DNA of 64,000 nt from a phage. How positions within the stretch are numbered: position 1 is the stretch's first letter; each line of letters starts with the position of its first letter. Shown in pieces: positions 13,358 to 62,657 of the stretch. The notes beneath the pieces were generated by a model. That model worked only from the letters and a program-made list of their open reading frames with translations, did no database searches and was not told the origin of the DNA. A program made the translations under genes and the position numbers. The DNA lies in sequence record OZ346212.1; one strand, 5' to 3'.

Positions 13358-13509
13358 AACCACAGTTGAGCGGAAAAGGAGGCTTAAAGATGAGCACTAC
13401 ACGCCAGCACACAAAGGTAACCATCATCGTTTGCATCATTGGGTACATCCTGGCGCAAATGTTGATGGGTAGCGCCAACGGTGTCGCAAAATTTTTCTTA
13501 AACTTTTAA

Positions 13510-22368: not shown

Positions 22369-22623
22369 TTAACGTTCTACAAAAATACCGTTCAGTTCAA
22401 TAACCAGGAATTTCTGGTCTTCACTATCGTCTCGTGCCAGCACCTCACAGACGTATCGGTCATCCCCATCATCATCGCAGTCAAATACAAGACTGAGGAC
22501 TTTATCATGGTAAACCTTCGCCACTACCGCCTCGTAAGTATTGCCGATTGTGAATCCAAGATAATCTCCGATGCATTTGACAACAACATGGTCTCCAGCA
22601 TTTAAGTCAATCTTCGTCATTAC
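22369..22623 (-). CDS. hypothetical protein
   Basis: Internal Met (MTKIDLNAGDH) avoids overlap; track ORF extends to 22686. Confidence 0.5.
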   Translation of the reverse strand, partial: VMTKIDLNAGDHVVVKCIGDYLGFTIGNTYEAVVAKVYHDKVLSLVFDCDDDGDDRYVCEVLARDDSEDQKFLVIELNGIFVER

Positions 22624-22775
22624 TGCGCTCCTTGGGTAATAATACTGTATGTAAAACTTTAACCAGAGATGTGAATAACGCCCCAAAACACACCGATAGC
22701 GCTAAAACAGACAAGGCCATCATTAAAGCTTCAGTAAAATCAGTCATTCCTCACCTCTTGTTAGCCACTATACTA

Positions 22776-23039: not shown

Positions 23040-23128
23040 ATAAGCACCTTACTGAAATACAAGACACAGTGTTAAGGTTACTGACCAGCAAATAATTAGC
23101 AGGACCATTGCAACCTTGGCAAGATTTA

Positions 23129-23416
23129 TCATAGTGCCTCTAAGATTTCATATCCTTCAGGTCGAAATACAAGCCACTCCGTGGCTCCGTTTGGTCGATA
23201 CGCTTTATACAGAACAACCTGATCTCGGCACATGCACATGGCTACATAGTTTTCATCCACACCTGCAGCCTGCATTGCATCTTCTTCTCCGGCAACTGCT
23301 TTGCTTACAACTTCCTTGGTAGGTAGGTGTGCGATCAGCTCGTCACCATCATTAATTCCAAAATGACTGAGTTCTCCATTGGTATCTTTAATCTTAATCT
23401 TAACCAGATCTTTCAT
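23129..23416 (-). CDS. hypothetical protein, possible distant member of MKVK...EIVE family
   Basis: Ends ...EGYEILEAL; tandem with family members. Confidence 0.5.
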   Translation of the reverse strand: MKDLVKIKIKDTNGELSHFGINDGDELIAHLPTKEVVSKAVAGEEDAMQAAGVDENYVAMCMCRDQVVLYKAYRPNGATEWLVFRPEGYEILEAL

Positions 23417-25789: not shown

Positions 25790-25926
25790 TTAGAGGTCTC
25801 CTCAATTATTTGATATTAATAGCCGTAACCTAACACATTAACTACAACTGCGATTGCAAACATAATTTCAAAGCATGCAATCTCTACATTTGGGACTAAT
25901 TTCTTAATCACACCCATTGTAGCACC

Positions 25927-26639: not shown

Positions 26640-27038
26640 TCAGTTTAGCTTTTCTTCAACAACCCCATAACTTGGGGCAGAGTCAAGAGCTTTCTGGTTT
26701 AAAAGTGGCGTAGCAGAATCTGCAAACGGTGTCCAAGTTTTTGTTCTGGAATTCCAGTAATGCTTCACTCTGGAATCTGGATGCACTATAACAAAAACTT
26801 TTTCACTTGTCAACACATTAATTTCTTCTACACCCTTGCTGATAATTTCTCCGTCATAGCCCCCAGTCTGGTATCCTTCGTACCAGGTTCTTGCATAGGC
26901 ATAGCCAGCCTGCCAGCATGCAGCCTCCTCCGAGGTGGAGACTACGTAGAAGTCTTTCTCAAATTCCGGAATACGCCCTTGCTTTACGCTCCAAGCTCCG
27001 CGAATTTTCATTGTTACTTTGAAAAGCTTGTTCTTCAT
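26640..27038 (-). CDS. hypothetical protein, paralog of 24433-24828
   Basis: Shared HYWNSRTKTWTPFADSATPLL segment. Confidence 0.55.
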   Translation of the reverse strand: MKNKLFKVTMKIRGAWSVKQGRIPEFEKDFYVVSTSEEAACWQAGYAYARTWYEGYQTGGYDGEIISKGVEEINVLTSEKVFVIVHPDSRVKHYWNSRTKTWTPFADSATPLLNQKALDSAPSYGVVEEKLN

Positions 27039-27039
27039 A

Positions 27040-27294
27040 CTACCGCTCTACAATCTCTACGTCTGTTCCTACACCGAAGGCATAGTAATGTTCTTCCCCA
27101 AAGTAATACTTGGGGACACCCGCTTTGATCAGATCTAACCCGCGAATAAATACCACACCGTGTGATACAGTGGAATGCTTCTGACGCACAGGATCGTTGT
27201 CAGGCAACCATTCAAAGTACACCGCAGGTACAACCTTTCCCTTCAGGAAGGATTGTCCCAAGTAGACGTTAGAATCAAGAATTTTAACCTTCAT
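27040..27294 (-). CDS. small protein, MKVK...EIVE paralog family
   Basis: MKVKILDSNVYLGQ...GLDLIKAG...YYAFGVGTDVEIVER. Confidence 0.65.
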   Translation of the reverse strand: MKVKILDSNVYLGQSFLKGKVVPAVYFEWLPDNDPVRQKHSTVSHGVVFIRGLDLIKAGVPKYYFGEEHYYAFGVGTDVEIVER

Positions 27295-27511
27295 TCTCGT
27301 CCTCCACTATCTCTGCATCCTCACCAAGGGCAAAGTTGTAGGTCCACTGGCTGTCAAAGCAGTCCTGAGATGCACCAGCGGCAATAAGATCTGCACCTTT
27401 TATTTTTAAAAGGTCAGGATAATCTTCGTTAGGGATAGCGGTAAACACTTTCCCCACTAAGGGCTCCTGACCAATATAGAAGCTTGAATCTAAAACTTTA
27501 ACTTTCATCAA
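27284..27511 (-). CDS. small acidic protein, MKVK...EIVE paralog family
   Basis: MMKVKVLDSSFYIGQ...GADLIAAG...FALGEDAEIVEDE; closest paralog of 27040-27294. Confidence 0.65.
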   Translation of the reverse strand: MMKVKVLDSSFYIGQEPLVGKVFTAIPNEDYPDLLKIKGADLIAAGASQDCFDSQWTYNFALGEDAEIVEDENEG

Positions 27512-27795
27512 CGGTCTCCCTCAGGCGGTTGTGGGACGTAAACACTGTTACGAATATCGTCAGCAGTGTAGTAATAAGTGGTTCCAACCCTATCTCGGGC
27601 TGCAATGTACTCTGCTATACCAACAAGTGCCATTGATTTGGTGGCGTATCTTCCCCACTCGTTAGCTCCCCAGTAGAATTTAGACCAGTAGGGAATAAGA
27701 CCGAACAAATATACCTTTTGACGAACTTCCCAGTAAGTGCCTTTTCCGACAAGTTTAAACTCTACTTCACTACTGTTAATCTTTTTCATTATCAA
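27508..27795 (-). CDS. hypothetical protein (95 aa)
   Basis: Track ORF; W/Y-rich. Confidence 0.5.
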   Translation of the reverse strand: MIMKKINSSEVEFKLVGKGTYWEVRQKVYLFGLIPYWSKFYWGANEWGRYATKSMALVGIAEYIAARDRVGTTYYYTADDIRNSVYVPQPPEGDR

Positions 27796-28088
27796 TCTCC
27801 CTCTACCGTGGTCGGATTGTCAGTAAGAAATTGAGCATTGGCTGGAGGCACGCCTGACATTTTCCACACAACCATAAGTTTATAACCAGGCACTCTATTA
27901 AGTGCAGATCGAGTAGAGTTTGTGCACGTATACTTTCGCTTTCCAAACCCGTTCTCCATCATAATCCAGTACCCAGTATCTTTGTCACCAGGTATCGGTA
28001 GACCACCTTCATCAACCCACTGAATTGACCACGGCACGATGGCTACAGCTTTATATTTAAACTTTTTAAACCACTCAAAAAGTTTCAT
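27792..28088 (-). CDS. hypothetical protein (98 aa)
   Basis: Track ORF; ATGA overlap. Confidence 0.5.
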   Translation of the reverse strand: MKLFEWFKKFKYKAVAIVPWSIQWVDEGGLPIPGDKDTGYWIMMENGFGKRKYTCTNSTRSALNRVPGYKLMVVWKMSGVPPANAQFLTDNPTTVEGD

Positions 28089-28388
28089 AATTCAGCCCCG
28101 CATAGACATAATCACTATAAATAGGCAAACAATGAATCCGAATGCCACGCCACCCATAAACGTTAATATTGATGCAATCATAGTCAATCAGCCTCGCCTG
28201 GCAACTCTTCTACCTTAACATGCCGAAAAGTGTTACCGTAATGGTTGATCCATGACATCAGCTCACTTTCTTGCTCTTCCTCTGGGATGAACTCTCGAAT
28301 ACTGACAAGTTTTAAGAAAACCTAATCACAATCTGCACCCATTCTACCAGACAGACAATAGTGCTTCATAAAAACCCTCCCGCCCGGT

Positions 28389-28583
28389 TTAGAATATTGC
28401 TTCTTCCATTGCGCCTGAGAGCAACAAAGAGGTGATCTGGCTAACATTCATCTCAGACTCTACTTCCTCCCCTTTGAAAGGTTCGCGGCAGAATAGGACT
28501 GTTTCAGGACTTTTACTTCGAACAATATAATACAAATCATTCAATGTGTTGTAGTAATAAGTGTTAAAACGTAAGTTTTTCAT
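28389..28583 (-). CDS. hypothetical protein (64 aa)
   Basis: Track ORF. Confidence 0.45.
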   Translation of the reverse strand: MKNLRFNTYYYNTLNDLYYIVRSKSPETVLFCREPFKGEEVESEMNVSQITSLLLSGAMEEAIF

Positions 28584-28867
28584 TTTCTAGTCCTCTTCTT
28601 AGATTTTTGGGGAGAAACGCTTTCTGCAATACGAGACAGACGTTCTTCTGAAGCCTTACCTACTCCAGGTTTTTTGAGTGGATTATCTTTATGACCACAA
28701 TCCAACTGGATATTGGATACCTCTCCAACTTTGTAAGTCAATTCTAGCAAAAGGTTGTCGTCCTTGTCAAATGTTTTTACGATAAATTTTTTATCGTTCT
28801 CCTGAACTTCATATCTGGTACCTGCAGTATACAGCATGGTGCCATCAGCATAGGATATCCAGATCAT
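28580..28867 (-). CDS. hypothetical protein (95 aa)
   Basis: Track ORF; basic C-terminus. Confidence 0.5.
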   Translation of the reverse strand: MIWISYADGTMLYTAGTRYEVQENDKKFIVKTFDKDDNLLLELTYKVGEVSNIQLDCGHKDNPLKKPGVGKASEERLSRIAESVSPQKSKKRTRK

Positions 28868-29211
28868 TGAGCCTCCTTTTGCTGCAACAGCATTAACTCT
28901 TTGTTAGAGATCTTTACTGCTGTTTTTATTGTTCCATCTTCACGAAACCACGACCAGAACTCTACAGTGTCACCACTATCAAGTAAAGCATGCCCATGGT
29001 AAAAATCTTTGTCCTTAGACAGTTTCTCATCTATATCTGCATCAACACATTCGTGATCCAGAGCATTTTGCCTGAACGCATCGGTTATGCCAATGCACGC
29101 CTTGCTCTCAAGACTGGTATATCCGATATCTTTTAATTCAGTTTCCCAAGTCCAGTACCCTATAAAAGCTAAAACAGCTACCCACAGTAATAACGTTTTA
29201 ATCTTTGGCAT
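28864..29211 (-). CDS. hypothetical protein with N-terminal signal/TM segment
   Basis: MPKIKTLLLWVAVLAFIGYWTW hydrophobic N-terminus. Confidence 0.5.
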   Translation of the reverse strand: MPKIKTLLLWVAVLAFIGYWTWETELKDIGYTSLESKACIGITDAFRQNALDHECVDADIDEKLSKDKDFYHGHALLDSGDTVEFWSWFREDGTIKTAVKISNKELMLLQQKEAQ

Positions 29212-29273
29212 TCTCTCTACCTCTTTCTTAGTTTATTTCACTATGGCACATCCTTTGTGCCATATCTCAACTA

Positions 29274-29744
29274 CTACTTAAATAGTAGTTCAAAATAGTG
29301 CAAAATTAACAGAAGTTGAACTACACCTAGTGCAACGGCGAGTATGTTAATCTTAGAATCGAAAAACTTCTTAACTTTTACTCTAAAAGGTTCCTTAATG
29401 TCCTTTACGATCCTATCTATAGATGACCTCATATCTCTGATTACCATCCTGAACATTAAAGACGGATGCTCCCCCATCTCCGTAACGGAATCGAAAACAT
29501 ACTCTCTTCGGTCATAAGGGCCGCCAGCTCTGCGTATTAACCTCTCCACAGAGACCTCGAACGTCACACCTGTAACGTAATCATCTATAACAAGTCGTGA
29601 CGGGTCTTTACCTTTACTATCAAGAGGTATCAAAGTTATCTTTCCAGATTTTGTTAAAATTTCCCCTTTTTCAAGCAAGGTGTACCAATGCTCTCTGCCA
29701 AGACTGTTGAGGCACGTTTTTACATATTTAACAAACATCGTCAC
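29274..29744 (-). CDS. hypothetical protein with C-terminal TM helix (156 aa)
   Basis: C-terminal ILAVALGVVQLLLILHYF. Confidence 0.5.
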   Translation of the reverse strand: MTMFVKYVKTCLNSLGREHWYTLLEKGEILTKSGKITLIPLDSKGKDPSRLVIDDYVTGVTFEVSVERLIRRAGGPYDRREYVFDSVTEMGEHPSLMFRMVIRDMRSSIDRIVKDIKEPFRVKVKKFFDSKINILAVALGVVQLLLILHYFELLFK

Positions 29745-29944
29745 CCCTCATCGCACGTCTGATATAACCACTCTATAAAATCTTGATACCATTCGCCCTC
29801 TGAGCGCTCCGTAGGCCAATAATCTTCACCCTCTCGTGCATTAAAATCTGAGTATTCAACTTTCCACTCCTTTACCAGCTCGTGGAGAAGGTTTTCAGCC
29901 TGCTCTAAAGATTTATTTTTTACCATTGCTGTCTCCTTTTTCAA
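29741..29944 (-). CDS. hypothetical protein (67 aa)
   Basis: Track ORF. Confidence 0.45.
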   Translation of the reverse strand: MKKETAMVKNKSLEQAENLLHELVKEWKVEYSDFNAREGEDYWPTERSEGEWYQDFIEWLYQTCDEG

Positions 29945-30145
29945 GATAGTTATACATCAGAACTGCACCACCTAAGATGGCTACCAGTAACAATATCCCA
30001 GATAGCATCTCAATAAACATGGCTTGAAACACTGGAAGGTCTCCCTAAATTAACGCACCATTTTAAATACATGCTCTTTTCCCATAAAGGTGCCTGGCTA
30101 AGATCTGCGTAGAACGCAATCTCTTTAAGAACAGTATAGATAGTT

Positions 30146-62553: not shown

Positions 62554-62650
62554 GCTAGGTAAGCCCTTTGGCAAGGGCGAGGATTTTTAATCCTGAAAAT
62601 AGACGAGGTAGTCGTTGAATACATAGGTGGTTCGATTCCATCACCTAGCA
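62554..62650 (+). tRNA. atypical 97-nt tRNA-like gene (possibly Lys-UUU with about 29-nt variable region) or pseudo-tRNA
   Basis: Perfect acceptor GCTAGGT/ACCTAGC, D-arm GCCC...GGGC, hairpin with loop TTTTTAA, extra hairpin ACGA-ggtag-TCGT, T-arm GGTGG-TTCGATT-CCATC; no encoded CCA. Confidence 0.35.
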
Positions 62651-62657
62651 CCTTTTT

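Follow-up and report, generated by a model that had tools for sequence, protein, structure and literature searches.

A probable membrane micropeptide gene shared by rV5-like and temperate coliphages lies beside a small gene cut by an amber codon

KdpF (29 amino acids, aa), PmrR (29 aa), MgtS (31 aa) and AcrZ (49 aa) are single-helix regulators which bind larger inner-membrane proteins. Phages also encode small inner-membrane proteins: T4 Imm and HK97 gp15 are exclusion proteins which are dispensable and act on host membrane functions against competing phages. The papillomavirus E5 protein and the artificial “traptamers” are transmembrane micropeptides that work by sequence-specific packing on the transmembrane helix of a cellular protein. 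Lambdoid phages reportedly carry “morons” and conserved boundary sequences at their mosaic joints, as is said to have been set out by Juhala et al. in 2000 and Clark et al. in 2001. Here we analyze a stretch of 64,000 nucleotides (nt) of phage DNA (record OZ346212.1; the whole stretch is referred to as the window) whose minus strand carries, from an ATG at 28181 to a TGA ending at 28092, a 29-codon open reading frame (ORF) for the hydrophobic peptide MIASILTFMGGVAFGFIVCLFIVIMSMRG, preceded by a 61-codon gene that is interrupted by a stop codon.

The window belongs to an rV5-like Vequintavirus, one of a group of E. coli myophages of ~137 kb, according to the taxonomy lines in the records of its relatives. 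Positions 27000-29500 match 118 phage records, the top ones being rV5_ev146, nomo, A6-1 and magaca at 99.8% identity. The original prediction, made from the letters of the sequence, had read 300 bp of the minus strand as a cluster of three independent micro-genes, of 29, 24 and 15 codons, with good ribosome-binding sites. All three ORFs are found in the sequence, as are the ribosome-binding motifs GAGG before the 29-aa ORF and GGGAGGG before the 15-aa ORF (Table 1). The cluster, however, is an artefact: the stretch holds two genes, not three micro-ORFs. The 29-aa ORF is very probably a protein-coding gene for a single-helix membrane micropeptide (hereafter the micro-gene), while the other two ORFs are what a nonsense mutation leaves of an ordinary small phage gene.

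The proposal of a single-helix hydrophobic micropeptide has fared better: the 29-aa ORF has a conserved frame, an excess of synonymous changes indicative of purifying selection, a hydrophobic character that is kept, and a Shine-Dalgarno (SD) motif in front, and these together argue for a real gene. By tblastn, 91 Vequintavirus records encode the micro-gene, and 72 of them specify the identical peptide despite DNA that differs from the window's. The sample for analysis of selection comprised 39 copies from Vequintavirus and from the temperate phages described below, representing 19 distinct 90-nt sequences with up to ~24% nucleotide divergence. Conservation in related genomes had been set beforehand as a check, and it is borne out: all 39 copies are open over exactly 29 codons, with no stop or indel. 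Parsimony on a neighbour-joining tree of the copies gives 35 synonymous and 34 nonsynonymous changes, where random mutation predicts a synonymous fraction of 0.24-0.27 (binomial P for the excess, 2e-6 to 2e-5). Between the window copy and that of the M1/5 prophage, the proportions of synonymous (pS) and nonsynonymous (pN) differences are 0.61 and 0.14. Each replacement within residues 2-26 exchanges a hydrophobic or small residue for another hydrophobic or small one, with charge changes confined to the last three residues. The invariant residues include G10, G11 and G15, arranged as G10-G11-xxx-G15, and C19, and all 39 copies follow the 29-codon family pattern M-[IV]-A-S-I-L-T-F-x-G-G-x-[AS]-x-G-F-I-x-C-x-F-x-V-x-M.

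The hydrophobicity of the peptide stands out within the window. There are 412 ORFs of 18-60 aa that start with ATG, 13 of which have a 17-residue Kyte-Doolittle mean of at least 2.3; five of the 13 also have an SD, and the micro-gene is the most hydrophobic of these five (mean 2.71). The peptide has a grand average of hydropathy (GRAVY) of 2.04 and a predicted membrane insertion energy of -3.2 kcal/mol over residues 5-25, the latter being a position-independent sum of Hessa-scale values. The GAGG motif is kept in the Vequintavirus and in the temperate-phage copies. A longer version of 31 aa, beginning at a TTG at 28187, was ruled out as the conserved start: the TTG is missing in the temperate-phage copies and the ATG is invariant.

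The family to which the peptide belongs (MIASILTF) is already in databases as a hypothetical protein, and the window gene is a further uncharacterised member. Its peptide is identical to a cluster member of this family (QXV75708.1, bas56_0157; UniRef A0AAE7VRD7; E. coli EQT27264.1), and its gene has the family's arrangement, with its SD inside the final codons of the preceding gene and another start codon within 3-4 nt of its end. The micro-gene is annotated as a hypothetical protein in AlexBoehm (bas56_0157), NHEP1 and MiataMamis, and hit tables indicate that PMBT16 and additional BASEL phages have it annotated as well. In the rV5 reference and the majority of the other inspected records this place is an unannotated 95-nt gap, and annotating a 29-aa membrane protein there is justified. 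Searches of Pfam (nothing above threshold), NCBIfam and the PADLOC models of anti-phage defence returned no family match for the peptide, and PHROGs gave only a weak one, to phrog_6302 (E 0.004), which has no known function. One match of 20 residues among the GTDB representative genomes, in a metagenome-assembled genome of Lachnospiraceae, was judged to be a chance hydrophobic similarity. We ruled out a structured RNA as an explanation of the segment: Rfam gave no credible match to it, and its predicted fold is unremarkable (z = -0.37).

The second gene of the stretch explains the remaining ORFs. The 15-aa and 24-aa ORFs lie in one frame (28369 to 28258 is 111 nt) with a single TAG between them, and relatives have one annotated 186-nt coding sequence of 61 aa in their place (VVG93914.1, A512_128, bas56_0158 and rv5_gp132). 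The TAG accounts for the lack of a tracked ORF in these 300 bp. When it is taken as Trp, the resulting 61-residue protein matches phrog_2381 (function unknown) with an E value of 3e-21, and tblastn aligns the whole of residues 1-61 in each of the 117 relatives with this region, at 100% identity in nomo and A6-1. By this whole-length match the gene is a member of the rv5_gp132 family, which is specific to Vequintavirus, in the form of a nonsense allele whose frame is interrupted. In the 61 nt surrounding the TAG, each of the 117 relatives departs from the window by at least one mismatch, which is the count in the best hits: the TGG-to-TAG change is private to this genome, and no database relative has the TAG. 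The change may be a recent knock-out, an amber allele maintained on a suppressor host or a sequencing error, all of which fit, and the gene merits marking as a nonsense allele in this genome.

We think it quite unlikely that the TAG is read through, by way of a suppressor host or a phage suppressor tRNA, and that the gene still works. Such read-through would suit one clean TGG-to-TAG change in an otherwise intact and highly conserved frame, and common laboratory hosts carry supE or supF, but a recent loss-of-function mutation or a sequencing error is an equally good fit, and a search of the window for an amber suppressor found a CUA anticodon in none of its seven tRNA genes. One gene of this tRNA cluster, at 62554-62652 on the plus strand and 97-99 nt long, is itself unusual: ARAGORN reports it as tRNA-??? 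with a four-base anticodon (atcc), and its Rfam tRNA score is weak (35.5 bits). An intron, an odd anticodon loop or degeneration of the gene could account for this.

The micro-gene is flanked by a short direct repeat. The upstream copy, GCGAGGCTGA, consists of the last codons of the 61-codon gene, reaches 2 nt into its TGA (28186-28184) and holds the SD of the micro-gene. The downstream copy encodes the C-terminal R-G-stop of the micro-gene and doubles as the SD of the next gene. Genomes without the micro-gene retain a single copy, GCGAGGCTGAATTATG. The 801-nt region is found in 118 records and the micro-gene segment in only 91, which leaves ~23% without it. Murica, Aya and S127 BCL3 are examples: 96-97 nt are missing at the repeat and one copy is left. 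Over 542 nt of flanking sequence, Murica and A51.2, which has the micro-gene, differ at 1 nt, whereas the flanks of S127 BCL3 are very different and are nearest to those of NHEP1. The simplest reading of the absence is repeat-mediated loss on more than one occasion. The near-isogenic natural pair A51.2 (with) and Murica (without) is direct material for testing the function of a phage micropeptide.

We propose that the micro-gene forms a cassette of ~96 nt bounded by a repeated SD-stop junction (GCGAGGCTGA), a junction that also provides the next gene with its ribosome-binding site and that, as we in part infer, would allow transfer as well as loss of the cassette. Since ~23% of relatives are without it, the micro-gene is dispensable for growth on the isolation hosts. 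As in a moron, an extra gene is present or absent between conserved neighbours. Consensus scans found no adjoining terminator, and a promoter-like site that overlaps the start of the gene. This site, TTGCCA-16-TATGAT, was also predicted by PhagePromoter in the Gotham record and is absent from the temperate-phage context.

That second context was found in E. coli, from whose genomes a member of the peptide cluster is recorded. Searching 5,426 complete E. coli genomes by blastn returned 10 chromosomes with 76-87% identity, and only over window positions 28086-28196, which correspond to the cassette with both of its repeats and the ATG that follows. All five chromosomal loci that we inspected are prophages with one gene order: holin, lysozyme, Rz, a 180-aa gene, a gap, small terminase and large terminase. 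The prophages are assigned to the mEp021-like (“mEpimmI”) temperate coliphages (PMC11893012). Scans of metagenomes and IMG/VR yielded 23 more loci, three of Vequintavirus and 20 of the mEp021-like temperate type, and no third context for the peptide.

The gap before the small terminase, ~0.8-1.0 kb in length and unannotated, is filled by tandem hydrophobic micro-ORFs on the same strand. Across 25 temperate loci this array consists of 7-12 ORFs of 20-47 aa, which cover ~70-97% of the interval and represent ~20 peptide families that vary in presence and order. Seventeen array families were variable enough to test: 16 have pairwise pN/pS of 0.00-0.37, and the exception, at 1.03, is from four loci with only two distinct sequences. 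These ratios indicate that the tested families are, with that one exception, under purifying selection. In 23 of the 25 temperate loci the first position of the array (slot 1) belongs to the window's peptide family, again flanked by a repeat (CGAGGCTGATTATG), and in mEp010 and MagusPhagus an unrelated hydrophobic ORF lies at the same junction instead. In a tree of the 90-nt sequences, the Vequintavirus copies group as a single clade inside the diversity of the temperate-phage copies; this suggests, with weak support from only 90 nt, that an rV5-like ancestor acquired the gene from a temperate phage. A scan of one locus, L015, detected no sigma70-like promoter in coding orientation inside the array, which is therefore probably part of the late operon.

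The Prokaryotic Genome Annotation Pipeline (PGAP) annotates almost nothing of the array. The 180-aa gene upstream of it (L015 6098-6640, minus strand) has an HExxH-like motif, LVHEVAHATFH, and its only match is to phrog_1365, of unknown function; it shares with the micro-gene the CGAGGCTGA junction that encodes its end, ...FKRG-stop. The paper on mEpimmI phages uses neither “transmembrane” nor “small ORF” and leaves the array unmentioned (PMC11893012), and our searches of the literature on rV5-like phages, mEp021 and phage small proteins found neither the peptide nor the array described. The temperate-phage array and its cassette link to rV5-like phages thus appear to be undescribed so far, and to be the more interesting lead. 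An array of about ten micropeptide genes occurs here in a common group of human-gut temperate coliphages.

In the rV5-like genome the setting is different. The locus is a run of small minus-strand genes, the counterparts of rv5_gp131, gp132 and gp133 in the rV5 reference, which fall within the rV5 transcription unit “genes 82-163” with its sigma70-type promoters (PMC3606486 and the rV5 record). The same unit in rV5 has nrdG, PhoH, a ClpP-like protease, a DNA methyltransferase and RaiA. A strong sigma70-like match upstream of the gene run (Table 1) agrees with the promoters annotated in this unit, and from this match and the content of the unit we infer that expression is early or middle and non-structural.

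How might the peptide act? Nearly the entire chain would form one transmembrane helix, probably inserted in the E. coli inner membrane. Because the GGxxxG face is invariant, the helix may pack through G10-G11-xxx-G15 onto a host membrane protein, or possibly onto itself. The target would be a host membrane component or the bilayer itself, rather than a phage-specific partner such as a holin, since the same peptide occurs in the non-structural unit of a virulent myovirus and in the presumed late operon of a temperate siphovirus. High turnover is typical of accessory loci in conflict, and the peptide is missing in ~23% of Vequintavirus genomes and sits in a fast-shuffling temperate array, so that we would regard it as accessory and dispensable, with a part in conflict between phage and host or between phages (exclusion or counter-defence), and not as a core component of lysis. 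Taken as a whole, the account of two genes, a real micro-gene, a host-directed accessory role and movement as a cassette is in our view somewhat more probable than its alternatives together. The specific host-directed role, superinfection exclusion or counter-defence, is put forward tentatively, as a candidate that may well turn out otherwise.

A number of points weigh against this account. The last three codons of the micro-gene share sequence with the SD of the gene that follows, so that some of the conservation may reflect the nucleotides and not the peptide. Its absence from ~23% of relatives means that it is not needed for plaques on laboratory hosts, and because recombination is rampant in the region some of the “empty” alleles may be ancestral and not the outcome of a loss. 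GxxxG-like motifs are common in transmembrane helices and thus weak evidence for a specific partner, and the charge of the C-terminus varies (RG, RD, QD, QR), which makes the topology uncertain. It is turnover and portability alone that suggest a role in conflict, a lysis-associated role in the temperate phages is possible, and the literature searches found no paper that mentions any family member.

The alternative that survives best, although we consider it unlikely, is that the peptide is an accessory of lysis timing which joins or modulates the holin/antiholin machinery of the inner membrane. A holin role had been suggested in the original prediction and is kept possible by the temperate homologue, which in 23 of the 25 mEp021-like loci follows holin-lysozyme-Rz in the same orientation at a distance of ~0.9 kb; with no sigma70-like promoter ahead of it in L015, the single locus scanned, late co-transcription with the lysis genes is likely there. 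The rV5-like copy, however, resides in a non-structural unit with nrdG, PhoH and RaiA and has no annotated lysis gene within ~8 kb on either side. A virulent myovirus and temperate coliphages would not be expected to share a cognate holin partner, judging from lifestyle and virion type and not from a comparison of holins, and unrelated peptides fill slot 1 in mEp010 and MagusPhagus beside a lysis cassette of the same gene order. Absence of the gene from ~23% of Vequintavirus genomes also argues against a part in lysis. No endolysin or spanin gene adjoins the micro-gene in the window or in rV5, and in mEp021-like phages the 180-aa gene stands between it and Rz. In place of one or more transmembrane helices with a charged hydrophilic C-terminal domain, as in a holin or antiholin, the peptide has one helix and a tail of 2-3 residues with variable charge. 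The location far from lysis genes in rV5-like phages and the portability of the gene, seen in its occurrence in unrelated phages, favour a host target over a holin partner.

It is improbable that no functional peptide is made and that the 96 nt persist as a spacer that supplies translational coupling or an SD to the downstream gene, as a segment with a promoter, or as neutral DNA that hitch-hikes. The segment is dispensable, supplies the SD of the next gene from its 3′ end and carries the promoter-like TTGCCA-16-TATGAT over its start, all of which would be compatible with such a role; yet the next gene keeps a working SD in genomes without the micro-gene, and what is common to the temperate-phage context is the ORF, not the promoter-like site. 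A spacer would also leave unexplained the synonymous excess (P about 1e-5), the complete lack of stops and indels in 39 copies and 19 distinct sequences at up to ~24% nucleotide divergence, and the hydrophobicity kept by every replacement in the helix core, and there is neither an Rfam family nor a significant RNA fold to speak for a function as RNA.

Least probable of all is a type I-like membrane toxin comparable to TisB, Hok, Ibs or Ldr, which would depolarise the membrane or make it permeable, for although the peptide is extremely hydrophobic, has the 29-aa size of TisB and is faced by a weak antisense promoter-like match (28084-28112, plus strand), the micro-gene showed none of the features of a type I toxin locus: Pfam and NCBIfam, with curated families such as Hok/Gef, Ldr, Ibs, TisB, ShoB and others, and PADLOC gave no match; the sequence scan found no stand-alone locus with its own promoter and antisense RNA antitoxin but a gene within a polycistronic run, 3 nt ahead of the next start codon; the antisense match is only 9/12, in a region whose 14 promoter-like matches are modestly above the shuffle expectation of 8.0 +/- 2.9; the RNA structure is not unusual (z = -0.37); and the peptide has no polar or charged face.

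Returning to the host-directed accessory role, the temperate array allows it to be carried further, in a form that is speculative and rather doubtful. The array may be a shuffled toolkit of transmembrane “binders” directed against host or competitor membrane proteins, held as ~90-nt cassettes, one of which was captured by rV5-like phages; the micro-genes would move via shared SD-stop-start junctions, and their purposes would be exclusion, counter-defence or control of membrane physiology. If this is true, the 29-aa gene of the window is an instance of an unrecognised mobile class of phage micropeptide effectors. If array peptides target host membrane proteins, they would constitute a compact and evolvable effector repertoire that is mostly missed by gene callers.

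The positions of these features are collected in Table 1, together with the two flanking genes.

Table 1 Positions of the micro-gene, the interrupted 61-codon gene, neighbouring features in the window and the array in temperate-phage loci.
Feature	Position	Strand	Remark
29-codon micro-gene (plus stop) encoding MIASILTFMGGVAFGFIVCLFIVIMSMRG, predicted single-pass membrane micropeptide	28092..28181	-	
GAGG Shine-Dalgarno of micro-gene	28192..28195	-	10 nt before ATG; within last codons of 61-codon gene
Upstream direct-repeat copy, GCGAGGCTGA	28188..28197	-	SD plus stop-codon junction
Downstream repeat copy	28092..28101	-	GCGGGGCTGA here (9/10), GCGAGGCTGA in most relatives
Weaker promoter-like match, TTGCCA-16-TATGAT	28177..28204	-	Overlaps micro-gene start
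61-codon gene, rv5_gp132 / ORF137 homologue, PHROG 2381	28184..28369	-	In-frame amber in this genome
TAG (amber), codon 16	28322..28324	-	TGG (Trp) in all relatives (alignment)
15-aa ORF, N-terminal fragment of 61-codon gene	28322..28369	-	
24-aa ORF, C-terminal part of 61-codon gene from internal Met38	28184..28258	-	
GGGAGGG Shine-Dalgarno of 61-codon gene	28375..28381	-	
Upstream 64-aa gene, rv5_gp131 homologue, PHROG 14379	28389..28583	-	
Downstream 98-aa gene, rv5_gp133 homologue, PHROG 8932	27792..28088	-	Start 3 nt past micro-gene stop
Sigma70-like promoter match, TTGACA-18-TAGAAT with upstream TG	28741..28770	-	Strong; consensus match only; upstream of gene run
Micropeptide array	L015 5144-6095; L016 5356-6095	- (L015)	Also L018-L022, L025, L027-L031, L034-L045

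The 98-aa gene is strongly mosaic among relatives, with nucleotide divergence of up to 36%. Both it and the 64-aa gene exist as sharply distinct alleles across Vequintavirus (21-36% nucleotide divergence), and between these divergent flanks the 61-codon gene differs from the window by at most ~12% and the micro-gene by at most ~9% in a multiple alignment. Because the flanking alleles are far more divergent than the two genes between them, the alignment points to fine-scale mosaicism with joints at gene boundaries and to rampant recombination. In the Vequintavirus MaxBurger (MZ501093.1), only 63 nt of the 801-nt region were matched, and the block of small genes is apparently replaced or deleted.

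Several other observations were made in the course of the comparison. Eighteen GenBank records titled “Campylobacter phage” (host C. jejuni; MG065655.1, MG065672.1 etc.) align to the 2.5-kb region, and the listed rows of these MG0656xx records have 91-98.5% identity over 801 nt, alongside E. coli rV5-like phages; this looks like mislabelling or mixed lysates. A 156-aa gene at 29274-29744 (minus strand) has a hydrophobic C-terminal segment, and its labels conflict between relatives (“HNH homing endonuclease”, “virion structural protein”, “putative membrane protein” and “hypothetical protein”). Five further window ORFs of 27-46 aa have a strongly hydrophobic stretch: 22607-22747, 23049-23132, 25816-25917 and 29913-30032 on the minus strand, and 13390-13509 on the plus strand. 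An SD motif was confirmed for four of them; the fifth, 29913-30032, starts with GTG and so fell outside the ATG-only scan, and corresponds to the annotated rv5_gp126. Several single-helix membrane peptides may be encoded in the same non-structural unit as the micro-gene.

Set beside the known single-helix regulators KdpF, PmrR, MgtS and AcrZ, the window peptide is of similar size, nearly its whole chain is one predicted transmembrane helix, and its proposed mode of action would be the same; in contrast to them it is phage-borne, and it has no sequence relationship to them (NCBIfam and Pfam were negative). It resembles TisB, Hok, Ibs, Ldr and ShoB in that these are peptides of 19-50 aa with a single hydrophobic helix, but it differs from them in that the locus lacks an antisense-RNA architecture, the peptide matches none of the families, and the gene is embedded in an operon at the level of translation. 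With T4 Imm and HK97 gp15 it shares being small, phage-encoded and dispensable, whereas those proteins have ~80 aa or more and polar domains and no homology to them was found; exclusion is a candidate role for the peptide. The likeness to E5 and the traptamers, which belong to a eukaryotic system, is an analogy of mechanism only.

The organization of the cassette has its closest counterpart in the morons. As is said of these, an extra gene is inserted between two conserved neighbours, is common to unrelated phages and has its joints at gene boundaries. The micro-gene differs in that it lacks a promoter and terminator of its own, measures ~96 nt, and is bounded by a repeat of 10-14 bp that is the SD-stop-start junction itself. 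These joints recall the “boundary sequences” that were reportedly proposed for mosaic lambdoid phages.

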